NCBI GenBank assembly: GCA_964636275.1
Contig: CAZWRN010000001.1
Span: 107,724 to 171,723, forward strand
Length of the DNA stretch: 64,000 bases
Direction of reading: 5' to 3'
Source: an uncultured Gammaproteobacteria bacterium
GTDB lineage: Bacteria > Patescibacteriota > Microgenomatia > Daviesbacterales > UBA10151
This document shows, piece after piece, positions 22,902-60,558 of this stretch (position 1 is its first letter; every line of letters begins with the position of its first letter). The notes under the pieces are model-generated. The model was not told where the DNA came from, made no database searches, and saw only the letters and a program-made list of their open reading frames with translations. The position numbers and the translations under genes were made by a program.

Positions 22902-22938
22902 TTGACAGGTATTAGCACTCGCGGTATTATATTGCTAA
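22902..22938 (+). promoter_or_regulatory. sigma-70-like promoter overlapping a CIRCE-like HrcA operator upstream of hrcA
   Basis: TTGACA (22902-22907), 17 nt, TATTAT (22925-22930). 'TTAGCACTC-N9-TATTGCTAA' (22912-22938) matches CIRCE TTAGCACTC-N9-GAGTGCTAA, with the left half perfect and the right half 6/9. Confidence 0.6.
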
Positions 22939-22977: not shown

Positions 22978-23709
22978 ATGGATTTAACTGACAGACAAAG
23001 AGAGCTTTTAAAGGCGATAGTCGAATTGCACGTTAAAACAGGCGAATCAGTTGGGTCAGAAGCGGTTGAGAGAGAAGCCAATTTAGGTGTTTCCCCAGCC
23101 ACTATTCGTAATGAAATGGTACGACTGACAGAGATGGGTTATCTGAGACAGCCACATACTAGTGCTGGTCGTGTGCCGACCTCCATGGGATACAAAATAT
23201 ATATCCAGGAGTTGATGAAGGAGCGCCAAGTTCCGGTGATGGCAGAAGTTCAGATGAAACAGCAGATGTGGCAGCGTCGCCACAAAGAGCAGCAGATGTT
23301 TCGGGAAGCTGCTAAAGCTTTGGCCAATCGGTGTCAGATGCTAGCAATGGCGATCACAGAAGATGGCGATCTTTATTACGCAGGGACATCCTATATTTTG
23401 GATTTTCCGGAGTTTGAAGATATCGATGTCACCAGATTTGTTCTGAGCCTTTTTGATGAATATCCGACTTTGCAAAATATTATTGGTAAAGCAGTCGGAC
23501 CAGATCCGATGCATATTTTATTTGGCGAAGATCTGGGAATAGAAAATCTACTGCCAACTGGATTTGTTTTCTGCCGATTTAAAGGTAGAAATGAAGAAAA
23601 AAGTGGTGTGGTTGGGGTAATCGGACCAGCTCGGATGAACTTTCCGGTGGTTTTACCCTATGTTCGTTACACCGCAAATGTGTTAGAAGATGCATTGAAG
23701 AGCTATTAG
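22978..23709 (+). CDS. hrcA: heat-inducible transcription repressor HrcA (short)
   Basis: N-terminal wHTH 'LTDRQRELLKAIVELHVKTGESVGSEAV...SPATIRNEMVRLTEMGYLRQPHTSAGRVPT'; CIRCE-like operator immediately upstream; followed by grpE-dnaK-dnaJ. Confidence 0.75.
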   Translation: MDLTDRQRELLKAIVELHVKTGESVGSEAVEREANLGVSPATIRNEMVRLTEMGYLRQPHTSAGRVPTSMGYKIYIQELMKERQVPVMAEVQMKQQMWQRRHKEQQMFREAAKALANRCQMLAMAITEDGDLYYAGTSYILDFPEFEDIDVTRFVLSLFDEYPTLQNIIGKAVGPDPMHILFGEDLGIENLLPTGFVFCRFKGRNEEKSGVVGVIGPARMNFPVVLPYVRYTANVLEDALKSY

Positions 23710-23718
23710 GAGAAAATG

Positions 23719-23826
23719 GATCAAGTAACAAGATACAAGTACCAAGATATAAGTACCAAACAATATTTAATTGGTAAATTGATCAGATTTCAAATTGTTT
23801 GGAATATTTGATTAATTGTTTCTTGG
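23719..23826. repeat. palindromic intergenic element, copy upstream of grpE
   Basis: Left arm GATCAAGTAACAAGATACAAGTACCAAGATATAAG; core AAATTGATCAGATTTCAAATTG; right arm TTTGGAATATTTGATTAATTGTTTCTTGG. Confidence 0.6.
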
Positions 23827-23840
23827 AAAGCTTAAAACTT

Positions 23841-24449
23841 ATGGCTAAGAATGACCAACAGCAAACTGAAGAAGAACTAACTGATGATGTAGCTCCTCAT
23901 GCGGAAAATGTTGAAAGCAAACAGTTGGCAGAAGACAGTAAAAAGACTAAGGGACAGGATTGTGAATGTGAAGATTGCAGCTGTGGTACTTGTGATTGTG
24001 AAGATTGTGATAAGTGTCAGAAAATTAAAGCTGAACTTGAGGAGATGACAACCAAATACAAACGGGCTTTGGCTGATTATCAAAATCTGGAAAAACGGGT
24101 AGCAGAGGGAAGAAGTGAACTGGCTGCCTGGGCTGGATCAGAAGTGATTAAAAAGATTTTACCAGTCATGGATCATTTTGATAAAGCTTTGAGTGGAGTG
24201 AGTGAGGATGAGGCGAAGTCAGGGTGGTTTAAAGGGGTGAAAATGAGTGTATTACAGCTTCAGCAGGTAATGCAAAGTGAAGGGTTGGAACAGATTGAAA
24301 CAGACGGACAATTTGATCCCACCCTTCACGAAGCGGTAGACACGAAAGAAGGTAAGGATGGTCAGATTTTAGAAGTAGTTGAAAAAGGCTGGAAGCTTAA
24401 TGGTAAAATAGTGAAGCCAGCCAGGGTGGTAGTTGGGAAAAAGGGATAA
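23841..24449 (+). CDS. grpE: nucleotide exchange factor GrpE with N-terminal Cys-rich insert
   Basis: 'VMDHFDKAL' and GrpE coiled-coil/beta-domain; 'DCECEDCSCGTCDCEDCDKC' cluster near the N-terminus. ATG at 23841 preferred over the TTG at 23799 that lies inside an intergenic repeat. Confidence 0.8.
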   Translation: MAKNDQQQTEEELTDDVAPHAENVESKQLAEDSKKTKGQDCECEDCSCGTCDCEDCDKCQKIKAELEEMTTKYKRALADYQNLEKRVAEGRSELAAWAGSEVIKKILPVMDHFDKALSGVSEDEAKSGWFKGVKMSVLQLQQVMQSEGLEQIETDGQFDPTLHEAVDTKEGKDGQILEVVEKGWKLNGKIVKPARVVVGKKG

Positions 24450-24541: not shown

Positions 24542-26461
24542 ATGGCTAAGATTATAGGAATAGATTTAGGTACAACAAATAGTGCGATGGCGGTGATGGA
24601 GGGTGGTAAACCCAAAGTTATCCATTCTGCAGAAGGCGCAAATACGATTCCTTCTGTGGTAAACCCGGTTAAAAGTGTGGTGGGTACTCCAGCCAAAAGA
24701 CAAGCGATTGTCAATCCAAAAGAGACAATCTTCTCCGTTAAGCGTCTGATGGGTCGAAAGCTGGATGATCCAGAAGTTCAGCGAGATCTGAAATGGCTGC
24801 CTTATGAAGTCAAAGCCGGTAAAAACGGTATGGCTGTAGTGTCTGTAGATGGTAAAGAATATACTCCACAAGAGATTTCAGCGATGGTGCTAAGTAAGAT
24901 CAAAGCTGATGCTGAGGCTTATTTGGGAGACAAAGTTACGGAAGCTGTCATTACCGTTCCTGCATACTTTGATGACTCCCAAAGACAGGCTACCAAGCAG
25001 GCAGGTGAGATTGCGGGGCTTAATGTTCAAAGGATCATCAATGAACCAACTGCTGCTGCATTGGCTTATGGTTTGGATAAACAAAACGCTCATACTATTG
25101 CTGTGTATGATCTTGGGGGCGGTACTTTTGATGTATCTATCCTTGAGCTGGGCGATGGTGTATTTGAAGTAAAGTCAACCAATGGTGACACTCACTTGGG
25201 TGGTGACGATTTCGATCAAGTGATTATTGACTATATTGCTGAAGAATTTAAGAAAGAGAGTGGTGTAGATCTCAAAAATGATAAACAAGCTTTGCAAAGA
25301 CTCAAAGATGCAGCTGAAAAAGCGAAAATCGAGCTGTCTTCTTCTCAGGAAACAGATATTTCTATCCCATTTGTGACAGCTGATGCTACCGGTCCTAAAC
25401 ATATCGATATGAAGCTGTCTCGAGCCAAGCTGGAAGCTTTGGTTCAGGGACTGATTGATAAATCATTTGATGCGGTTAAAGCGGCTTTAGCTGATGCCAA
25501 AATTGATGCCTCCAAAGTCGATGAAGTGGTGTTGGTTGGGGGTATGACCAGAATGCCAGCCGTACAAGCAGCAGTGGAGAAATTCTTTGGTAAAGAGCCA
25601 CATAAAGGTATTAATCCTGATGAAGTGGTAGCTATCGGTGCTGCAATTCAGGGAGGTGTCTTGGGGGGTGAAGTCAAAGATGTATTGCTGCTCGATGTGA
25701 CCCCTCTGACTTTGGGGATTGAAACACTGGGGGCTGTAAGTACACCGTTGATCCCTCGCAACAGTACTATTCCAACTTCAAAATCTGAAACTTTCTCGAC
25801 CGCGGCTGACAATCAGACCTCAGTGGAGATCAATGTGCTCCAAGGTGAAAGACAGATGGCAGCTGACAACAAATCTTTGGGTCGCTTTATGCTGGATGGT
25901 ATTCCACCAGCCCCTCGAGGAACTCCTCAGGTTGAAGTGACTTTTGATATCGATGCTTCCGGAATTTTGCATGTATCAGCCAAAGAGAAAACTACTGGTA
26001 AAGAGCAAAAAATCACTATTACCGGATCAACTGGTCTTGATAAAGATGAAGTTGAGCGAATGACCAAAGAAGCGGAAGCTCATGCTGAAGAAGATAAAAA
26101 GAAAAAAGAGGAGATTGAGACCCGAAATACGGCTGAACAGATCGTCTATACAGCTGAAAAAAGCCTGAAAGATGCTGAAGGTAAGATCGGTGATGATCTG
26201 AAAAAAGAAGTTGAAGAGAAGATTCAAGCAGTTAAAGATGCCAAAGAAGGTCCAATTGATGAATTAAAAGCCAAAGCAGATGCACTAGGTGAAAGTATGC
26301 AAAAAATCGGTGCTGAGATGTATAAAAACCAGCAACCAGCTGACAGTCAACAGTCTACAGCTGAAACAGGATCCGAAGAGCCAAAAACTGAATCCAATGA
26401 TGTTAAAGACGAAGCAGTTGAAGGCGAAGTAGTGGAAGAAGAGAAGAAAAAGGAAGAATAA
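24542..26461 (+). CDS. dnaK: chaperone DnaK (Hsp70)
   Basis: '[10 protein letters not shown]', 'DLGGGTFD', '[10 protein letters not shown]' Hsp70 signatures; acidic EEKKKEE C-terminus. Confidence 0.95.
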
Positions 26462-35459: not shown

Positions 35460-37142
35460 ATGGCTGATTATTCAAACCTTTTAGGTGATTTTCCCTCTAA
35501 ACTTGCTTCAAGTAAGCGTATTTTGCTGGCTCTTTCCAAAGATTTGAGCGTAGATTCGTTGGGTTCAGCATTAGCAATGGCTTTAGCTTTGCAAAAGGCT
35601 GGTAAGACGGTATCAGTGGTGAGTGAAGGGACTCCATTGGTCTCACATTCTAATTTATTTGGAATTGGTGAGGTGAAAAATAGTGTCCCTACTTCTGGTG
35701 AAGGTAACTTTGTAATAAAACTGGATGGGGTAGTAGACCCCTCAGGTCAGATGAATACTGTGCCAGCTTTGGAAAAACTTGATTGGAACCCAGAGGGATC
35801 AGCTTTAAACTTAGTTTTCCATGTTGTACCAGGCCAGAGATTTGAGCCGACAAATGTGTCTTATGGCCATGAAACAAGTGGTTTTGACCTGATTATTACA
35901 ATCGATGCTGATTCTTTGGACGAATTAGGCCAGATTTATCTGAAAAATGCTGCACTTTTTAGTAAATCGACGATTGTAAATATTGACAATGAAGCTTCAA
36001 ATAGCCAGTTTGGCAATATCAATATCGTTGATCCGCAGGCTTCCTCTTTGTCTGAAATGACTGTTCATATCCTCAAGCAACTCAATCTTGAGATGGATCA
36101 AGATATCGCTTCCAACCTAGTTGCTGGTATCTATGCTGCAACCCACAATTTGACTCAGCGAGTGAGTCCGGATACTTTCGCGGCCGTTGCTACTGCAATG
36201 CAGTCGGGTGGTAAATTGCCAGAAGGGGGAGTTGTTAGTCAGCAACCAGCTGTCAGCAATCAGCCTTCAGCAAACTCAGCTCCGCAGGAACCTGCAGTAG
36301 AAGCCCAACCAATTGTTCAGGCCCCGATTGCTCAGGAAATCAATCAGATTCAGTTTAATAACCTGCCTTCAGCTGTCAGCGATCAGCCTTCAGCAACTCC
36401 AGCTCCGCAGGTTGTAGAGCCACCAGTAGCTGTTGCTCCTCAGCCAGCTATAAATCCAGAGCCAGTTCAAACACCTGTTCAGCCAGCTGTAGAAGCTCCG
36501 GCAAATGATCTGTATAGTAATCCTTTCCTAAACCCAGGTGGTCAGTCTTTTGGTGCTCCATTAAATCAGCCTCCAGCTGTCAGCGATCAGCCATCAGCAA
36601 CTCCAGCTCCGCAGGTACCAGCTGCTGCATCAGCGAGTGATCCGTTTGGGGCTCCAGCTAGTGGACCAACTTTCAATTTTGGTTCATTTGGAGATAGTCA
36701 GCTATCAGCTGTCAGCAATCAGCCTTCAGCAAACTCAGCTCCGCAGGTGCCAGTAGCTGCTCAACCAGTTCCTGTTCAGGAAGAAAAAGTCGATGTTAGT
36801 GGTCTTTTAAATACTATTCAGCAGGCCAATAAACCAGATAGTGCCTATGATTTAAAACAGATATTTAATGTTGAACAGATGCCAGAAACTCCAGTGGTAG
36901 GAAATACGACGCATGATTCAGCAGTGGTTCAGCCATCAGCTGTCAGCGATCAGCCATCAGCCATCCCAACTCCGCAGACTCCAGTAGATCAAACACAACC
37001 TGTTCAGGATAGTAAACCAGAGTCTTCACCGGAAGAAAAACCAGCTGGTGAAGCAGTTGATTCAGTAAATACAGAAGCGGAAGCCAATCCAACCCCAGAT
37101 TGGTTAGTCCCCAAAATATTCAAAGGCGGATCTTTAGGATAA
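35460..37142 (+). CDS. DHH-family (NrnA-like) phosphoesterase homolog with degenerate catalytic motifs fused to a Q/P/S-rich repeat tail
   Basis: N-terminal about 240 aa resembles the DHH domain, but motif I is 'DLSVDSLGS' (for H.nPDGD.lGS) and motif III is 'DAD' (for DHH). The C-terminal 300 aa has 5-6 copies of '(Q)PSAVSDQPSA(T/N)(P/S)APQ'. Confidence 0.5.
   Translation: MADYSNLLGDFPSKLASSKRILLALSKDLSVDSLGSALAMALALQKAGKTVSVVSEGTPLVSHSNLFGIGEVKNSVPTSGEGNFVIKLDGVVDPSGQMNTVPALEKLDWNPEGSALNLVFHVVPGQRFEPTNVSYGHETSGFDLIITIDADSLDELGQIYLKNAALFSKSTIVNIDNEASNSQFGNINIVDPQASSLSEMTVHILKQLNLEMDQDIASNLVAGIYAATHNLTQRVSPDTFAAVATAMQSGGKLPEGGVVSQQPAVSNQPSANSAPQEPAVEAQPIVQAPIAQEINQIQFNNLPSAVSDQPSATPAPQVVEPPVAVAPQPAINPEPVQTPVQPAVEAPANDLYSNPFLNPGGQSFGAPLNQPPAVSDQPSATPAPQVPAAASASDPFGAPASGPTFNFGSFGDSQLSAVSNQPSANSAPQVPVAAQPVPVQEEKVDVSGLLNTIQQANKPDSAYDLKQIFNVEQMPETPVVGNTTHDSAVVQPSAVSDQPSAIPTPQTPVDQTQPVQDSKPESSPEEKPAGEAVDSVNTEAEANPTPDWLVPKIFKGGSLG
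36238..36990 (+). repeat. intragenic dispersed 45-nt repeat CAGCTGTCAGCGATCAGCC(A/T)TCAGCAACTCCAGCTCCGCAGG (5 copies), encoding 'AVSDQPSATPAPQ'
   Basis: Copies at about 36250, 36366, 36576, 36708 and 36940 inside the DHH-like gene; related copies at 41935 (Lon-like gene) and 43275 (rnj). Confidence 0.7.
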
Positions 37143-38783: not shown

Positions 38784-41132
38784 ATGCAAAAAGTTATTAC
38801 AAAACAAATTGAAATAAACGGAAAGACTTTGAAACTGGAAACAGGGAAACTTGCTCTGCAAGCAGATGCAGCAGTTTTAGCAACTCAGGGAGAGACAGTT
38901 GTTTTGGCGACCGTTGCAACAAAGCCATTAAAAGAATCAATTGGTTATTTCCCCCTCAGTGTTGAATATGTTGAAAAACATTATGCTTCCGGAAGAATTA
39001 CTCCCCAGAAATTTATCAAAAGAGAAGGTCGTCCATCTGAAAAATCTATCTTGTCTGGTCGAGCAATTGATCGTTCTATCAGACCACTTTTTCCAAAAGA
39101 TTTTGAAAATGAAGTCCAAGTGATCATTACTGTTTTGTCTTATGACTCTATCAATGATCCGGTGATGTTGGCTATGACTGCTGCTTCAGCTGCTTTGTCG
39201 ATCTCGTCAGTACCATGGGCAGGTCCTTTGGCTGGTGTTCGAGTTGGTGAATACGAAGGTGAATTGGTGGTTGATCCAGAGATGTCTCATCTTCCAGACT
39301 TAACTTTGGAAGTTGTAGTAGCTTCATCCAAAGAATTAGTTCCAATGATTGAGGCCAAAGCTAAACAGGCCAAAGATGAGCGAGTATTTGAAGCTTTACA
39401 GCTGGCTCACAGTGCAGCTCAGCCAATCATTGATCTGATCAATGACTTTACTAAAGAAGCTGGTAAAGAGAAACAATCTTATAAATCCAACTTAGATGGT
39501 GTTGATGAAGAGCTTTTGAATACGGTGAAAAAAGATGTTGAAGAGCGCATCACCAAAGCGTTGTTTGATACCGAGCACACCTGGCATGATTCGACCGCTT
39601 CTCAGATCAAAGAAGAGGTTACTACCGAATACGCTGAACAGCTGACATCCAACCAGATCTCAACTGTTTTTGACAAGGTCGCTAAACAGATCATGAGTGA
39701 CACTATTTTGCACAAAGGCAAACGTGTTGATGGCAGAAAGATGGAAGAGATCCGCGAGATCACAATGGAAGTTGGTTTGCTTCCACGGGCTCATGGATCA
39801 GCTTTGTTCCAAAGAGGTGCTTCACAGTCTCTGTCTATTGCCACAGTTGGTCCACTTTCAGTGTCACAAACTTTGGAAGGTATGGAAGGCGAAGGCAAAA
39901 AGAGATTTATGCATTATTACAATATGAGTATCAATCCTTTTGCTTCAGGTGAAGTAAAAAGATTGGGTTCTCCAAACAGACGTGATATTGGTCATGGCAA
40001 TTTAGGTGAGATCTCTTTAGTTGGTGTACTTCCTTCAGAACAAGAGTTTCCTTATGCTATCCGAGTAGTTTCTGAGATTTTGGGAGCCAATGCTTCCACT
40101 TCACAGGCAGCTATTAGCGGTTCTACTTTGGCTATGTTAAATGCTGGTATTCCTATTGAACCAGTTGCAGGTATTGCTTTGGGTCTGATCACTGATCACA
40201 GCGATGATAAAAAATTCCAGGTGATCACCGACATGCAGGCAACTGAAGATTTTTATGGTGAGATGGATTTTAAAGTAGCTGGTACTGTCAATGGTATTAC
40301 AGGTATTCAGATGGATACCAAGCTGCATGGTCTGACCTTTGACATTATAAAAGAAGCTTTGCGACAGGGTAAACAGGCTCGTGAAGCAATATTGGCTAAA
40401 ATGCGGGAAGTGATGCCTCAGGCCAATGAACTGTCTAAATACGCTCCCAAGATTGAAATTACTCATATTCAGCCAGATCAGATCGGTATGTTGATTGGGC
40501 CAGGTGGTAAAAATATCAACGGTATTATTGCTGAGACCGGTGCTCAGATCGATATTGAAGATGATGGTACTGTGATGGTTTCTTCGATGGATAGTGTTGC
40601 AATCCAGGCTGCTTTGGACAAGATTACAGGTATGTTTAAAAAAGTGATGCCTGATGAAGAGTATGAAGGTAAAGTAGTTCGAATTGAACCATTTGGTGCA
40701 TTTGTCGAGATTTTGCCTGGTAAAGATGGATTGGTACATGTGTCTCAGATGGCTCCTGAACGAGTTGAAAGACCAGAAGATGTAGTTGAACTAGGTCAGG
40801 TTGTAAAGGTGAGAGTGGTCGATGTAGATAATATGGGTAAGATCTCTCTTTCAATGCTTTTTGGAGCTGATCGAAAGCCAGAATCTGAAAGACGCCCAAG
40901 TGGTGGAGACCGAGGTGGACGGGGAGGTTTTGGAGGCGATCGTGGAGGCAGTCGAGGTGGTTTTGGTGGTGGAAGTGACAGAGGCGGACGCGGCGGAGAT
41001 CGCGGTGGCTTTGGAGGTGGATCCAGATCTGGTGGCGGTATGAGACGTGGTTTTGGTGGTGGAAGTGACAGAGGCGGACGCGGCGGAGATCGCGGTAGCC
41101 GAGGTGGCAATCGAGGCGGATTTAGTAGATAA
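38784..41132 (+). CDS. pnp: polyribonucleotide nucleotidyltransferase (PNPase) with C-terminal RGG/GGDRGG repeat tail
   Basis: Two RNase PH domains, KH, S1 ('GKVVRIEPFGAFVEIL'); about 85-aa 'GGDRGGRGGFGG' tail encoded by a 44-nt tandem duplication (40962-41005 and 41047-41090). Confidence 0.95.
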   Translation: MQKVITKQIEINGKTLKLETGKLALQADAAVLATQGETVVLATVATKPLKESIGYFPLSVEYVEKHYASGRITPQKFIKREGRPSEKSILSGRAIDRSIRPLFPKDFENEVQVIITVLSYDSINDPVMLAMTAASAALSISSVPWAGPLAGVRVGEYEGELVVDPEMSHLPDLTLEVVVASSKELVPMIEAKAKQAKDERVFEALQLAHSAAQPIIDLINDFTKEAGKEKQSYKSNLDGVDEELLNTVKKDVEERITKALFDTEHTWHDSTASQIKEEVTTEYAEQLTSNQISTVFDKVAKQIMSDTILHKGKRVDGRKMEEIREITMEVGLLPRAHGSALFQRGASQSLSIATVGPLSVSQTLEGMEGEGKKRFMHYYNMSINPFASGEVKRLGSPNRRDIGHGNLGEISLVGVLPSEQEFPYAIRVVSEILGANASTSQAAISGSTLAMLNAGIPIEPVAGIALGLITDHSDDKKFQVITDMQATEDFYGEMDFKVAGTVNGITGIQMDTKLHGLTFDIIKEALRQGKQAREAILAKMREVMPQANELSKYAPKIEITHIQPDQIGMLIGPGGKNINGIIAETGAQIDIEDDGTVMVSSMDSVAIQAALDKITGMFKKVMPDEEYEGKVVRIEPFGAFVEILPGKDGLVHVSQMAPERVERPEDVVELGQVVKVRVVDVDNMGKISLSMLFGADRKPESERRPSGGDRGGRGGFGGDRGGSRGGFGGGSDRGGRGGDRGGFGGGSRSGGGMRRGFGGGSDRGGRGGDRGSRGGNRGGFSR

Positions 41133-41817: not shown

Positions 41818-41858
41818 TGTCAAATACTACCAATGTCAAATGACAAATGCCCAATCAT

Positions 41859-41886
41859 TAGACATTAGACATTAGACATTAGACAT
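41859..41886. repeat. (TAGACAT)x4 heptanucleotide tandem repeat upstream of the Lon-like ATPase gene
   Basis: Four perfect units, 10 nt before ATG 41897; a candidate slipped-strand (phase-variable) promoter/leader spacer. Confidence 0.7.
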
Positions 41887-41896
41887 TTAATACATT

Positions 41897-43054
41897 ATGG
41901 ATAATTCTGCCCAAAATAATCAGCAACAACAGCCATCAGCCGTCAGCGATCAGCTATCAGCCAACCAAGCTCAGCAAGGTCCGATTTCTACAGCAGTGGT
42001 CGATAAACTAGTTACCTCACAAAATCCCAGTCAGATTGTGGATAAACTGAAGGCTAAAGTGGCGGCAGCGCAGTTGCCTGCTGATGTTTTGGAAAAAATC
42101 CAAGATGAGGTGAGTCGGATTGAGCTGGTATTTGCCAGAAAAGAGTTTAATCCCGAGCTGGACCGGCAGATCAAATATATTGATTTTATTTGTGAATTAC
42201 CATGGAATAAAGTCGGCCAAGACAATCTGGATTTAAATCATGCCAAACAGATTTTGGAAAAAAATCATCACGGTCTAGAACCCTTAAAAGCTCGGATTTT
42301 GGAATATCTGTCGATTTTGATCTTAAATAAGCAGAAAGGTTTGACACCAAAGCAGCCGGTATTGGCTTTTGTGGGGTTAGCGGGGTCCGGAAAAACGACG
42401 ATCGCTTTTTCGATAGCCGAAGCTTTGGGAAGACCGATCATTCGTATTCCATTTGGTGGTCTTGGTTCAGCACTTCAGTTGCGTGGTGAATCCCGGGTGA
42501 AGTCTGAAGCTGAGCCGGGGATGATCGCGAAAGCGATGAAAAAAGCTCAGGTGAAAAATCCGGTTATCTTGATCGATGAGATCGATCGTGTGACCGATTC
42601 AGCCAGGACGGATATAATGGGGGTTTTAATTGAGCTTTTGGATCCAGAGCAGAATATGGCTTTTACCGATCATTATGTCGGTTTCCCTTTCGATCTGTCA
42701 CAAGTATTATTTGTCGCTACCGCCAATAACACTGGCAATGTGGCTACAGCGGTACTAGATCGTCTGGAACTCATAGAGATGCCTTTTTATACTGATGAAC
42801 AAAAAGTGGTGATTGGTAGAGATTATCTGCTGCCGCAGGCCTTAAAAAATGCCGGTTTGGATCCACAAACGGTCCAGATCAGCAATGAGATGTGGAGCCA
42901 GATTGTGCGTCCACTGGGGTTTGATGGCGGAATTCGTTCTTTAAAGCGCAATATTACCAATATGACTGGGAAAATTGCCCGGATGGTAGTCGAAGGAAAC
43001 AAGGGACCGTTTGTAATAAATGAACAGAACTTAGCCCAGTATTTGAATATATAG
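41897..43054 (+). CDS. Lon-like AAA+ ATPase module without LON N-domain or protease domain; Q-rich N-terminal extension
   Basis: Aligns with the Lon ATPase segment: 'YIDFICELPWN', 'HHGLEPLKARILEYL', Walker A 'GLAGSGKTT', Walker B 'VILIDEIDRV', sensor-2 'GIRSLKR'. Ends 'NLAQYLNI*' where Lon continues into the protease domain. Confidence 0.75.
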   Translation: MDNSAQNNQQQQPSAVSDQLSANQAQQGPISTAVVDKLVTSQNPSQIVDKLKAKVAAAQLPADVLEKIQDEVSRIELVFARKEFNPELDRQIKYIDFICELPWNKVGQDNLDLNHAKQILEKNHHGLEPLKARILEYLSILILNKQKGLTPKQPVLAFVGLAGSGKTTIAFSIAEALGRPIIRIPFGGLGSALQLRGESRVKSEAEPGMIAKAMKKAQVKNPVILIDEIDRVTDSARTDIMGVLIELLDPEQNMAFTDHYVGFPFDLSQVLFVATANNTGNVATAVLDRLELIEMPFYTDEQKVVIGRDYLLPQALKNAGLDPQTVQISNEMWSQIVRPLGFDGGIRSLKRNITNMTGKIARMVVEGNKGPFVINEQNLAQYLNI

Positions 43055-43055
43055 A

Positions 43056-43146
43056 GATTAGGAAGTAAGATACAATAACCAAGAAACAAGTTATCCAATT
43101 AAGGAATATAGTTTAACTATTTGCATCTTGATTATTGTTTTCTTGG
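43056..43146. repeat. palindromic intergenic element, copy 5' of rnj
   Basis: Left arm GATTAGGAAGTAAGATACAATAACCAAGAAACAAG; right arm TTTGCATCTTGATTATTGTTTTCTTGG. Confidence 0.6.
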
Positions 43147-43157
43147 AAGACTTATTT

Positions 43158-44996
43158 ATGAAATCATTTAAACCACAACAACAGACTAATACGCAAAACG
43201 TAACACGCAATACGAGTACTCAAAAACCAACCATATACCATAATCCGCAGCCAGCGGGGGGAAATACTGTGCAGCAATCAGCTATCGGCTCTCAGCCATC
43301 AGCAAAAAACAGTAATCAGAATCAGCAGAAGAATCAACCAATGGGTGATACAGTGCGACTGATTCCATTGGGTGGTGTAGGCGATGTGACTAAAAACATG
43401 TATGTATATGAGTATAAAAATGACATCGTCATCGTCGACTGTGGTGTATCTTTTCCGGAAGAGAGTATGCCGGGGGTCGATTTGGTAATTCCGGATATTA
43501 GTTATTTGCGAGATAAAAAATCTAAAATCCGTGGTATTGTGATCACTCACGGGCACGATGATCATTATGGAGCGTTGCCATATATCTGGCCAGAGCTGGA
43601 TGTGCCCATTTACTCTCAAAAACTGACCTGTGGACTGATTCGTTCTAAATTCAGTGAGCACAAATTGCCAAAAGACAAGATCAAGGAGATGAAAATTACT
43701 GATACTGTTCAGTTGGGCGCCTTTAAAATTTCGGTATATCAGGTTTCTCATTCGGTCCCAGATTCAACAGGAGTGGTTTTGGAGACGCCAGTAGGCACTA
43801 TTATCCATCAGGCTGACTTTAAAATAGATTGGACACCGGTAAATGGACAGGTCCCCGATGTGGGTCGGGTAGCTGAGTTGGGACGAAAAGGGGTACTGAT
43901 GATGACTATTGATTGTCTTCGCAGTGAAAAGCCTGGTTATACTATTTCCGAAAAAACCATTCAGCCAACATTTGAAAAAATTGAAGCTGAGACCAGGGGG
44001 CAGTTGATCATTACCCTGATTACCTCCAATATCACCCGGATTCAGCAGGCTATAAATGTGGCTGTTCAGTCGGGTAGAAAAGTGGCATTTGTCGGTAGAA
44101 GCATGGAAAACAATGTTCAGGTGGCCAGAGATTTGGGCTATCTGCATGTTCCACCTGGAGTAGTGATCAATCAGGAAGAGGTTAGGCGATTTGCCCCAGA
44201 AAAACTAATGATTATTATTGCGGGTTCTTTGGGTCAGCCAGGTTCAGCCTTATCGCGGGCTGCTCATGGTGATCACAAAAATATTCGAATTAGTCCCACT
44301 GATACAGTTGTTTTTAGTGCCGATCCGATGCCGTCAGCTGAAATGTCTCAGGGGATGATAATTGATGCTTTAGCCAGAATTGGTTGTAAAGTGTATTATT
44401 CACGATTAACCGAAGATTTGCATGTTTCAGGTCACGCAGCCCAGGAAGAGTTGAAGCTGATGATCAATCTGGCTAAACCAAAAAACCTGATGCCTATGGG
44501 TGGTAATTTCCGTCACATGAGGGCATTTTCCGATATGGTCAAAGAGATGGGGTATAAAGACAACCAGATCTTTGCGTTAAAAGAGGTACAGGCAATTGAG
44601 ATCGGTCGTGATAAAGCCCGAATCGGTGAAAGAATCCGGGAAGAAAATGTCTATGTGGATGGGTTAGGGGTTGGAGATGTAGGGCAAATTATTTTGCGAG
44701 ACAGGCAGTTGATGAGTGAAGAGGGCGTGGTGGTGGTGATCGCTCGGGTTGATATGAAAACTGGCAAGTTGGAAGGTGAGCCGGATGTGATGTCCCGAGG
44801 ATTTGTCTTTGGTGAAAGTGGTCAGGATATTACTGGTGCTGCTAAAGAGATAGTTAAAAGTATCTTCTCAGGTCTTCATAGCGGACCGACAGATTTTAAA
44901 TATATTCGCCATGAAGTGGAAGACAATTTAGGCAAGTTTTTCTACGAAGAAACCAAACGCAAACCGTTGATTTTGACAACGGTTGTAGAGATTTAA
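43158..44996 (+). CDS. rnj: ribonuclease J with Q/N-rich N-terminal extension
   Basis: Metallo-beta-lactamase 'ITHGHDDHYGALPY', beta-CASP and C-terminal domain. ATG 43158 (MKSFKPQQ) preferred; the upstream TTG lies in an intergenic repeat. Confidence 0.9.
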   Translation: MKSFKPQQQTNTQNVTRNTSTQKPTIYHNPQPAGGNTVQQSAIGSQPSAKNSNQNQQKNQPMGDTVRLIPLGGVGDVTKNMYVYEYKNDIVIVDCGVSFPEESMPGVDLVIPDISYLRDKKSKIRGIVITHGHDDHYGALPYIWPELDVPIYSQKLTCGLIRSKFSEHKLPKDKIKEMKITDTVQLGAFKISVYQVSHSVPDSTGVVLETPVGTIIHQADFKIDWTPVNGQVPDVGRVAELGRKGVLMMTIDCLRSEKPGYTISEKTIQPTFEKIEAETRGQLIITLITSNITRIQQAINVAVQSGRKVAFVGRSMENNVQVARDLGYLHVPPGVVINQEEVRRFAPEKLMIIIAGSLGQPGSALSRAAHGDHKNIRISPTDTVVFSADPMPSAEMSQGMIIDALARIGCKVYYSRLTEDLHVSGHAAQEELKLMINLAKPKNLMPMGGNFRHMRAFSDMVKEMGYKDNQIFALKEVQAIEIGRDKARIGERIREENVYVDGLGVGDVGQIILRDRQLMSEEGVVVVIARVDMKTGKLEGEPDVMSRGFVFGESGQDITGAAKEIVKSIFSGLHSGPTDFKYIRHEVEDNLGKFFYEETKRKPLILTTVVEI

Positions 44997-45258: not shown

Positions 45259-46290
45259 ATGGAAAATAATTCACTAACCGCTATAAGAGGTGTTAAAGTT
45301 GGTCATTCTACGCATCCGGATAAACTTACTGGGTGCACTTTTATTTCTTTTGATGAAGAATATCCTGTGGCGTACAAATCATATGGGGGTGCGCCCGGCA
45401 CATATGCTACTGAAAATCTGAATAATGGAATGTCGTTTGCTTTGAGAAATGGATTGTTCATAGCGGGTGGAAGTTTGAATGGTCTTACTTCCGCTGCTTC
45501 AATTATTGATAGATTAGTTCAAAAAAAATCTGGATTAAAAGTGGGAAATACTTGGTTACCCGCAATTAGCGGAGCTATTGTTTGGGACTTAGGCGTTGAA
45601 ATTTCTCAATATGATTTCAATTATGGAAAAGAAGCAGTTGATAATTTATCTAATGAACCTGTTAAAAATGGCAATGTGGGAGCAGGTACCGGTACTACTG
45701 TGGGTAAGTTTCAATATTTAGAAAAAGGCATCAGTAGTGGAGCGATGAAATCTGGTGTCGGTTCAGCCAGGGTTGACCTAGGAAATGGGATTATGATTTG
45801 CGCCTTATCCGTCGTTAATGCATTGGGCAACATTGTAAATAGGGATGGTACTGTTCTGGCGGGTAATAGAAATGAAGAAGGTGGATTTACTGATTTTGAT
45901 GAAGTCGGTAATTTTGTTACAACAAAAAAATCAAATACTACTATATCTGTCGTAGGAATAAATGTTGATTTAAAAAATAGAGAAGCATATGAAAGAATCG
46001 CTCACTTTGGTGCGCAAGGTCAGATTAGAGCTATAAATCCCGTCCAAACTTCAATTGATGGAGATACGGTTTTTGTTTTTTCTTCAAAAGAGATTAGTAA
46101 CCCGCTTAATTCTTTTGGTAAATACTGGCAAACTCCTGCTTGGCCAGAATTTACCATTGACATGATTGGTTACGTAGCATCTAAAGCAGTACAACTAAGT
46201 ATTTACGATGCCTGTACTTCTGCAGAAACAATTGATTTTAAAGGAGCATACAAAGGAATTATTCCCTCGGCTGCAGATTATAGAAAATGA
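45259..46290 (+). CDS. P1/S58 (DmpA/ArgJ-fold) family peptidase
   Basis: 'GVKVGHSTHPDKLTGCTFISF' N-terminal pattern and Gly-rich core typical of the DmpA L-aminopeptidase family. Confidence 0.6.
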   Translation: MENNSLTAIRGVKVGHSTHPDKLTGCTFISFDEEYPVAYKSYGGAPGTYATENLNNGMSFALRNGLFIAGGSLNGLTSAASIIDRLVQKKSGLKVGNTWLPAISGAIVWDLGVEISQYDFNYGKEAVDNLSNEPVKNGNVGAGTGTTVGKFQYLEKGISSGAMKSGVGSARVDLGNGIMICALSVVNALGNIVNRDGTVLAGNRNEEGGFTDFDEVGNFVTTKKSNTTISVVGINVDLKNREAYERIAHFGAQGQIRAINPVQTSIDGDTVFVFSSKEISNPLNSFGKYWQTPAWPEFTIDMIGYVASKAVQLSIYDACTSAETIDFKGAYKGIIPSAADYRK

Positions 46291-60030: not shown

Positions 60031-60162
60031 TTAGAATTTCTAAGTACTCTAATTCCTAATATCTAAATAAGATCCAAATCTCAAGACGCTAAATACTTTT
60101 AGGATAATTTAGTTAGAAATTAGAAATTAGAAATTAGAAATTAGAAATTAGAAATTAGAAAT
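60031..60162. repeat. second dispersed intergenic repeat family, copy 2, ending in (TTAGAAA)x7 heptanucleotide tandem repeat (60113-60161)
   Basis: TTAGAATTTCTAAGTACTCTAATTCCTAAT, then seven perfect TTAGAAA units ending 4 nt before the ruvX ATG. Confidence 0.7.
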
Positions 60163-60165
60163 TTT

Positions 60166-60558
60166 ATGAAATATCTTGGTGTTGATTATGGATTAAAAAA
60201 GATTGGTCTAGCGGTATCTGAAGGACAAATTGCTTCACCATTGCGAGTGATTGCTATCTCTAGTCTAAAAGATGGTTTAGAAAAGCTAGCTCATGAGATA
60301 AAAAAAGAAGATATACAAAGAGTTGTCATCGGAATATCTGATGGTAAGATGGGTAAGATAACCCACCAGTTTGCAAATGAGCTAAAAAAAAGATATCAGA
60401 CGACACCAGTAGAGGTGATTGAAACTGATGAAACATTGAGTTCATTCGATGCTCAAGAGTTGATGATTACTCTCGGAACTTCCCAAAAAGATCGACAGGA
60501 AGAGGATGCATATTCGGCGATGTTGATTTTACAGCGGTTTCTTGATAGTTTGAGTTAG
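60166..60558 (+). CDS. ruvX: Holliday-junction resolvase-like RuvX/YqgF
   Basis: 'YLGVDYGLKKIGLAVSEG' YqgF N-terminal signature; RNase H-like fold, 130 aa. Confidence 0.85.
   Translation: MKYLGVDYGLKKIGLAVSEGQIASPLRVIAISSLKDGLEKLAHEIKKEDIQRVVIGISDGKMGKITHQFANELKKRYQTTPVEVIETDETLSSFDAQELMITLGTSQKDRQEEDAYSAMLILQRFLDSLS

Follow-up and report, generated by a model that had tools for sequence, protein, structure and literature searches.

A short Lon-type gene between pnp and rnj

The 64-kb stretch of contig CAZWRN010000001.1 analysed in this study (hereafter the window) carries, between the genes for PNPase (pnp) and RNase J (rnj), a gene whose 385-aa product corresponds to the motor portion of the ATP-dependent protease LonA (Table 1). 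An earlier note, made from the nucleotide letters and a list of open reading frames (ORFs), had described this protein as aligning only with the AAA+ region of Lon and as ending where the protease domain would start. Profile searches and alignment bore this out. In the 385-aa protein, Pfam recognised an AAA domain (PF00004, residues 157-292, E=8e-17) and a Lon_lid domain (residues 317-369) and nothing else; neither the LON N-domain (PF02190) nor Lon_C, the S16 Ser-Lys protease domain (PF05362), was matched. The NCBIfam model TIGR00763 (endopeptidase La) was covered from position 248 to 568 of 795, with 319 bits against a cutoff of 608, and NF008053 scored 223 bits where 891 are required. By protease domain, N-domain and equivalog cutoff alike, the protein thus falls outside full LonA. 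When aligned with E. coli Lon (EcLon), it spans EcLon residues 252-584; its C-terminus (NLAQYLNI) lies opposite EcLon NLHDYLG, and its stop codon stands where the protease domain would begin.

Table 1. Features of the window. Residue numbers in the first column refer to the 385-aa protein; numbered residues under remarks follow EcLon, with counts among 94 family members.
Feature	Position	Strand	Remarks
hrcA-grpE-dnaK operon	22978-23709, 23799-24449, 24542-26461		
pnp (PNPase)	38784..41132	+	RGG-rich C-terminal tail; upstream neighbour conserved in the family, 0-1 genes between
Hypothetical protein, 225 aa	41140..41817	+	N-terminal hydrophobic segment; no Pfam match; Daviesbacteria-type loci only, between pnp and the short Lon gene
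Perfect heptanucleotide array (CATTAGA)x4.6 (= TAGACAT frame)	41856..41887	+	ends 9 bp before ATG
Protease-less LonA paralogue, coding sequence	41897..43054	+	ATG start; 385 aa; tail, 3-helix bundle, AAA+ alpha/beta part and lid
Q-rich N-terminal tail, residues 1-41	41897..42019	+	pLDDT <50, predicted disordered; in place of the Lon N-domain
3-helix bundle, residues 44-100	42026..42196	+	NTD-3H, or C-terminal part of the HI(CC) domain, of LonA (EcLon ~251-305)
Walker A GLAGSGKT, residues 160-167	42374..42397	+	K362 94/94, T363 93/94
Remodelled pore loop 1 RGESRVKSEAEPG, residues 196-208	42482..42520	+	LonA counterpart RGHRRTY[VI]GAMPG
Walker B VILIDEID, residues 223-230	42563..42586	+	D423 and E424 94/94
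Pore-loop-2 region DSARTDIMGV, residues 234-243	42596..42625	+	LonA counterpart D[FYM]RGDPASA
Sensor-1 ATANN, residues 274-278	42716..42730	+	N473 94/94
Arginine finger LDRLE, residues 287-291	42755..42769	+	R484 94/94
Sensor-2 GGIRSL, residues 344-349	42926..42943	+	R542 94/94; within Pfam Lon_lid
Weak imperfect inverted repeat before rnj	43072..43146	+	kept only among very close strains
rnj (RNase J)	43158..44996	+	conserved downstream neighbour; ATG at 43158 aligns with relatives; in-frame TTG at 43128 also possible
Peptidase S58 (DmpA-like) gene, downstream of rnj	45259-46290		
130-aa ORF behind (TTAGAAA)x7.3	60166-60558	+	

What the protein retains is the complete equipment of a AAA+ ATPase of the Lon type. 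The general superfamily motifs (GxxGxGK[ST], hhhhDE, sensor-1 and arginine finger) are present, as are the further elements of a Lon-type module, namely sensor-2, Lon_lid and the 3-helix bundle of the N-terminal domain (NTD-3H). The catalytic residues are invariant among the 94 family members compared, with the single departure at T363 given in Table 1. The statement of the earlier note that the ATPase motifs are intact therefore stands for the motifs of nucleotide binding and hydrolysis; it does not extend to the substrate-engaging pore loops, which are altered (see below).

To both missing parts of Lon, tblastn searches in all frames of the window gave nothing: the best E value was 0.2 for the EcLon N-domain (residues 1-250) and 2.0 for the EcLon protease domain (residues 586-784). 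Because the same two probes detected the corresponding domains of Patescibacteria LonA at 1e-34 and 1e-74, respectively, these negative results are meaningful, and they agree with the earlier observation that no protease-like coding sequence follows the gene. Membership of a different AAA+ clade was also excluded, since after lon (E=6.5e-95) and PRK10787 (E=5e-66) the next NCBIfam model scored E=2.5e-06. All of the best matches among solved structures were LonA (B. subtilis 3m6a, E=1e-68), with alignments that ended at the last AAA+ residues.

An AlphaFold2 model of the 385-aa protein was built on a 12-sequence family alignment (mean predicted local confidence score, pLDDT, 80.9). It comprises a disordered tail (residues 1-41), a 3-helix bundle (44-100), an AAA+ alpha/beta part (~113-295) and a helical lid (300-385). 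Superposed on 6n2i (EcLon 235-584), the model gave a template modelling score of 0.91 normalised to the target and a root-mean-square deviation of 2.2 A over 341 columns. Every top Foldseek match of the model was LonA, with E values down to 5e-30; by profile, structure and fold matches alike, the protein groups with Lon and with no other AAA+ clade. The equivalence of the 3-helix bundle with the NTD-3H and HI(CC) domain of LonA follows from the alignment and the model, together with published work (PMC7239648, PMC6722904). This bundle carries conserved Y..W/F and LPW positions, and the NTD-3H aromatics Y294 and W297 (EcLon numbering) are mostly retained in the short family. The tail before it varies widely in length and composition among relatives; in the window, part of this tail is encoded by a CAGCCAT repeat (x4.9, 41930-41963).

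Breadth and conservation of the short family

When 5.8 billion proteins were searched, more than 120 relatives of 343-391 aa were found at 64-100% identity, none with Lon_C. Among 1.84 billion cluster representatives, further 50%-identity clusters of short proteins with the same end boundary were present (P0134, P0140, P0142, P0146, P0147, P0152, P0156, P0158, P0163, P0166 and P0184). In a metagenome scan, 80 of 80 loci held complete ORFs of ~326-420 aa, and no Lon N- or P-domain lay within +-6 kb. The AAA+-only architecture is thus shared by more than 200 relatives, which answers the question, raised in the earlier note, of whether the same truncation occurs elsewhere. Phylogenetic analysis (332 alignment columns, 94 short proteins and 22 LonA, neighbour joining with 100 bootstraps) placed the short proteins in one clade apart from LonA in 100/100 bootstraps, with a mean identity of 54% inside the clade and 38% to LonA. 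The window protein belongs to this family by its stop at the AAA+/protease boundary, by its length (330-500 aa being the family range applied) and by clustering within the short clade.

The family is also under strong purifying selection. In four comparisons, the ratio of nonsynonymous to synonymous substitution rates (dN/dS) was 0.012-0.027 in the core (residues 48-385), whereas the N-terminal 47 residues evolved much faster (0.13-0.36). Apart from the truncated architecture itself, nothing favours the idea that the gene is an artefact of assembly or a decaying lon remnant, and its probability is negligible: more than 200 independent assemblies show a complete ORF that stops at the same boundary, the core dN/dS is low, the catalytic residues are invariant, and no protease remnant lies downstream in the window. 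A pseudogene is excluded by dN/dS and motif invariance, and a frameshifted protease domain hidden downstream by an assembly error, which the earlier note had proposed looking for, is rejected on the tblastn search of the window together with the 80 metagenome loci. Its judgement that the protein is unlikely to be a dead fragment is upheld by the core dN/dS, the invariant catalytic residues and the monophyly of the family.

Named family members come from Daviesbacteria, Levyibacteriota, Roizmanbacteria, Shapirobacteria and the 'Microgenomates group', and the closest named relatives of the window protein are Daviesbacteria; Daviesbacteria and Roizmanbacteria both belong to the Microgenomates group of Patescibacteria. 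Several third-party-annotated metagenome-assembled genomes titled 'uncultured Gammaproteobacteria bacterium' (L004, L008, L009 and L010-L013) have the Daviesbacteria-type order of pnp, hypothetical gene, short Lon gene and rnj at 64-98% identity, and another with that title (L018) carries a Patescibacteria LonA instead. These titles look taxonomically wrong.

In current reviews, a Lon protease is by definition a single chain that combines ATPase and protease, and the types distinguished are LonA, LonB, LonC and LonBA (PMC9569914). Literature searches for a natural protease-less Lon, including in the candidate phyla radiation (CPR), or for a link of Lon with RNase J, pnp or rnj, returned nothing relevant. 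The Lon-AAA-only proteins are well supported as a family, and the family is apparently undescribed. Database labels for its members are 'AAA family ATPase' and the misleading 'ATP-dependent Lon protease' and 'Lon protease', of which the last two overstate the proteolytic capacity inferred for CPR genomes.

Rebuilt pore loops and the proposed function

LonA (S16, TIGR00763; E. coli Lon, B. subtilis LonA and human LONP1) shares with the short family a homologous AAA+ module and 3-helix bundle at 35-45% identity. Beyond the loss of the LON N-domain and of the Lon_C Ser-Lys protease domain, the short family differs from LonA in the loops that face substrate: the Tyr-Val/Ile pincer is absent, a Pro and two acidic residues are found there, and the RGDP motif is changed. 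The two groups form separate clades, and the LonA module is basic whereas that of the short family is mildly acidic (isoelectric point 9.2 for EcLon, 6.5 for the window protein and, as the median of the family, 6.1).

The translocating polypeptide is held in Lon by the pincer-like grasp of two pore-loop-1 residues, Y398 and I399 (PMC7239648). The core of this loop reads RRTY[VI]GAMPG in LonA and SRVKSEAEPG in the window protein, so that the aromatic-hydrophobic pair is replaced here by K-S. Across the family the loop follows the signature S-[RK]-x-x-P-[DE]-[AS]-E-P-G, which the window protein fits except for a Ser in place of the first Pro, as in 9/94 members. Position by position (EcLon numbering), R395, an Arg in LonA, is Ser in 82/94 short proteins; Y398, a Tyr in 22/22 LonA, is H in 24, F in 16, S in 14, Y in 10, R in 9, Q in 4, L in 4 and K in 3; I399 (V/I/L in LonA) is Pro in 69/94; G400 (Gly in LonA) is D/E in 87/94; and M402 (M/L in LonA) is Glu in 91/94. 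The pore-loop-2 region has changed as well: G434 is replaced by A/S/T, P436 by I (84/94), and position 432 no longer carries a bulky residue. Because the new loop is itself conserved, we take it to be functional in a different form and not the product of decay. Given that pore loop 1 is rebuilt and the pore-loop-2 region changed, canonical substrate threading is doubtful. The generic unfoldase role that the earlier note had considered is accordingly doubtful too, since the Tyr and Val/Ile pair has become K-S here, and x-Pro with two acidic residues family-wide.

Taken together, these data suggest, with a probability that we put at roughly 55%, that the short proteins are a conserved family of the Microgenomates (CPR/Patescibacteria), derived from LonA, that acts as a non-proteolytic, ATP-driven remodeller or chaperone. 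In the scheme that we propose, a LonA ancestor would have lost its substrate-binding domain at the N-terminus and its S16 domain at the C-terminus, leaving the 3-helix bundle and a competent AAA+ module. The short protein would assemble into a Lon-like ring or spiral and hydrolyse ATP. Since its axial loops are acidic, contain proline and often lack an aromatic residue, it would not unfold proteins generally in hand-over-hand fashion for delivery to a protease; instead, it would remodel or chaperone a limited range of clients, which may be basic. The disordered N-terminal tail, which evolves fast, would take the place of the Lon N-domain in tethering or recognition.

Several observations weigh against this remodeller reading. 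Tyr or Phe persists at the aromatic pore-loop position in 26/94 (~28%) of family members, and some ability to grip and thread polypeptides may persist in parts of the family. Both the ATPase activity and the oligomeric state of the short protein are inferred. The protease domain of LonA adds to hexamer stability, and a module lacking it may assemble poorly alone or require a partner. Coexistence with LonA was observed for the groESL-linked Roizmanbacteria subclade, in at least one genome, and is shown for that subclade only; finally, a protease partner may be encoded beyond the 64-kb window.

The closest precedent for assembly of such a module is the engineered fragment EcLon(235-584) (PDB 6N2I), which is almost exactly co-extensive with the natural short protein, and which binds ADP and, even with no P domain, packs in the crystal into an open helical hexamer (PMC6722904); ring or spiral formation by the short protein may follow this pattern. 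The two also differ: as a proteolytic fragment, 6N2I derives from a protease, and its pore loops are canonical, whereas the short protein is the product of a natural gene with rebuilt loops and a disordered tail. LonC, a Lon-like protease without ATP-powered unfolding activity (PMC3391209), is likewise a natural Lon derivative that has given up one of two activities. It is, however, the mirror image of the short family: in LonC the protease is retained beside a degenerate AAA-like module without ATPase activity, whereas the short family keeps a competent ATPase site and has no protease, so the 385-aa protein is not a LonC. Elsewhere among AAA+ proteins, FtsHi of chloroplasts and ClpX without ClpP are motors of protease lineages reused non-proteolytically. 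Both belong to other AAA+ clades; a protease domain, though inactive, is still present in FtsHi, and the aromatic pore loops of ClpX are canonical. A large and strongly conserved natural family that keeps only the Lon motor, with the substrate-contacting loop rebuilt, indicates that this motor can be reused without proteolysis; for AAA+ proteins of the HCLR clade, the family offers a natural experiment on pore-loop chemistry.

The relation of the short protein to full-length LonA bears on a different possibility. Microgenomates widely possess a full-length LonA (~780 aa; LON N, AAA, Lon_lid and Lon_C) whose sequence is highly conserved. In 'Candidatus Roizmanbacteria bacterium GW2011_GWC2_37_13', a short protein (P0448) occurs together with a full-length LonA (P0293); another such pair (P0498 and LonA P0338) has the same longest contig size of 350,513 bp (DJWA01000002.1, GCA_002440905.1), both in run SRR5323225. 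Since both forms are present in the same genome, the short protein is, in the Roizmanbacteria-type subclade, a paralogue that coexists with LonA and not a replacement for it. Catalytically inactive subunits occur in other AAA+ protease rings, and the short protein might similarly co-assemble with or cap LonA rings to tune their activity or specificity, a role with which the shared genome and the retained NTD-3H bundle and AAA+ ring-contact surfaces would be consistent. We nevertheless consider it rather unlikely. Identity to LonA AAA+ modules is only ~38%, as compared with 75-97% among the Microgenomates LonA proteins themselves; the short gene was never adjacent to lon in the examined loci; and its own invariant ATPase site and conserved pore-loop signature argue for autonomous activity. 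Moreover, the genomes in which co-presence with LonA has been seen are Roizmanbacteria, whereas that of the window is of the Daviesbacteria type.

It is highly improbable that the module is one half of a split Lon that feeds a separately encoded protease, whether Lon_C-like or another peptidase, in trans. Split AAA+ proteases such as ClpXP and HslUV do exist, and in the window an S58 peptidase gene lies two genes downstream. This gene is not syntenic, relatives having ftsK, HAD-hydrolase, CN_hydrolase or 23S-rRNA-IVP genes in its place. When the immediate neighbours were typed by Pfam, none of the 124 genes flanking the short gene, upstream and downstream taken together, belonged to a peptidase family, and no Lon_C-like sequence was found within +-6 to 10 kb at ~100 loci. 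An adjacent protease partner is excluded by these neighbours and the non-syntenic S58 gene, and the loss of the aromatic-hydrophobic pore-loop pair argues further against threading into a protease chamber.

Three other proteins, P0126 (1113 aa), P0128 (1075 aa) and P0131 (997 aa), are Lon proteases in which a hydrophobic N-terminus precedes two or three tandem Lon-type AAA+ modules and then a single Lon_C. To our knowledge, such a duplicated-motor Lon architecture has not been described.

Gene neighbourhood and upstream repeats

In Daviesbacteria-type genomes, the gene order is rpsO, pnp, a hypothetical gene for a putative transmembrane protein, the short Lon gene, rnj and ftsK. At 40-52% identity, Levyibacteriota (L014) still show the order pnp, short Lon gene, rnj, and P0140/L031 and P0184/L032 keep the pairing of the short gene with rnj. 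Neighbours were counted in the 80 metagenome loci, with those having enough flank as denominators. On the same strand, rnj lay within 4 kb downstream in 35/43 loci and was directly adjacent in 17; pnp lay within 3 kb upstream in 30/44 loci and was directly adjacent in 18. By Pfam, the immediate upstream neighbour was PNPase in 27/60 and GroES in 15/60, and the immediate downstream neighbour was RNase J in 17-18/64, uracil-DNA glycosylase in 9, RNaseH_like in 7 and Metallophos_2 in 4. Where another gene separates the short Lon gene from rnj, it most often encodes uracil-DNA glycosylase (~9/64 metagenome loci), and this gene sometimes overlaps the stop codon of the short gene (L030).

The GroES-linked cases form a subclade that includes Roizmanbacteria and has the pore loop QSKTSPE[AS]EPG. 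Here the short gene and groES-groEL are transcribed divergently, an RNaseH_like (PF04308) gene lies downstream in convergent orientation, and neither pnp nor rnj is nearby. The RNA-decay neighbourhood of the family is therefore common and old, yet loose and not universal.

This neighbourhood is the basis for viewing the short protein as a dedicated RNA-decay cofactor, that is, a CPR-specific degradosome component acting on PNPase and/or RNase J, either through acidic pore loops that engage an Arg-rich PNPase tail or by remodelling RNase-RNA complexes. Such a role would fit the arrangement of pnp, 0-1 gene, the short gene, 0-2 genes and rnj, which holds from 98% down to ~40% identity, and the frequencies of pnp and rnj given above; in some genomes only 4-6 bp separate the stop codon of the short gene from the start of rnj. 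The upstream PNPases, whose tails were read at family loci only, have Arg/Gly-rich tails, and pore loop 1 has gained two conserved acidic residues while the isoelectric point of the module has gone from 9.2 (EcLon) to ~6. The cofactor role, which the earlier note had also raised, is attractive but contextual; we regard it as doubtful, and the present data have weakened it. Gene order is its whole basis; unrelated genes (for uracil-DNA glycosylase, Metallophos_2 or a transmembrane protein) intervene in many loci; and the Roizmanbacteria-type subclade sits by groESL with no pnp or rnj nearby. Furthermore, the gene strings nusA-infB-rpsO-pnp and rnj-ftsK are ancient and conserved in Terrabacteria, and because of this the position of the short gene may be partly historical. 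The gene order is compatible with a role in proteostasis or in ribonucleoprotein remodelling and does not identify a client.

The PNPase encoded in the window ends in a ~90-aa tail of RGG/RGGFGG repeats (40830-41129), and PNPases upstream of the short Lon gene at other loci also end in Arg-rich low-complexity tails. A more specific and still less likely version of the cofactor idea is that the acidic, proline-containing pore recognises such Arg-rich tails, for example the PNPase RGG tail, and regulates or remodels PNPase and RNase J as a new ATP-dependent degradosome component in organisms without the usual scaffolds. If a link to PNPase and RNase J were true, it would represent a previously unrecognised ATP-dependent layer of RNA turnover in ultra-small bacteria.

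The controlling inverted repeat of chaperone expression (CIRCE) was found neither in the divergent spacers between groES and the short Lon gene nor upstream of the short gene in the window. A shared CIRCE/HrcA operator for this gene is thus excluded, the sole CIRCE-like site in the window being an inverted repeat with 2 mismatches (TTAGCACTC-N9-ATTGCTAA) at 22912, directly upstream of hrcA-grpE-dnaK. Because this repeat precedes that operon, the organism appears to use HrcA/CIRCE heat-shock control.

Downstream of the short gene, rnj follows as the earlier note had described, and the palindromic element that it placed between the two genes proved to be only a weak, imperfect inverted repeat. 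The predicted RNA fold of this spacer had z = -1.5, and 20/200 shuffled sequences folded as well; the candidate of a structured RNA or terminator was dropped, as the fold is not significant.

Upstream, the repeat reported in the earlier note as (TAGACAT)x4 is real, and comprises 4.6 perfect copies. The array is preceded by two copies of AATGTCAAAT, partly complementary to it. A second strain group (L115 and L116) likewise has a heptamer array, inside which its contigs break; the heptamer is single-copy in L027-29 and absent in L113 and L020-25. Because it is present, single-copy or absent across strain groups, the array represents a recent lineage-specific expansion. In six contigs of one strain group, the spacers were identical.

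Phase-variable expression of the short gene through slipped-strand changes in copy number, as the earlier note had suggested, would be in keeping with a perfect 4.6-copy array placed 9 bp before the ATG and with its recent expansion, and still seems improbable. The variation in copy number cannot readily be followed where contigs break inside the array, and the spacers are the same in the six contigs just mentioned. The repeat tract is not part of the coding sequence, and a promoter scan gave no more sites than shuffled sequence. A similar perfect array, (TTAGAAA)x7.3, lies at 60113-60163 and stops 2 bp short of the + strand ATG of an unrelated ORF, so that such arrays are not specific to this gene; the family is, moreover, otherwise strongly conserved and housekeeping-like.

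Period-7 repeats are a feature of the window as a whole. Perfect arrays of at least 3 copies are almost exclusively of period 7, as are about half of the repeats listed by Tandem Repeats Finder, and a run of period-7/14 DNA repeats (TCAGCAA/TCAGCCA and variants) occupies 36238-36965. The CAGCCAT repeat within the coding sequence of the short protein's tail resembles this run. The 130-aa ORF behind the second array has an N-terminus that we take, from reading it by eye and with no database match, to be RuvX/YqgF-like.

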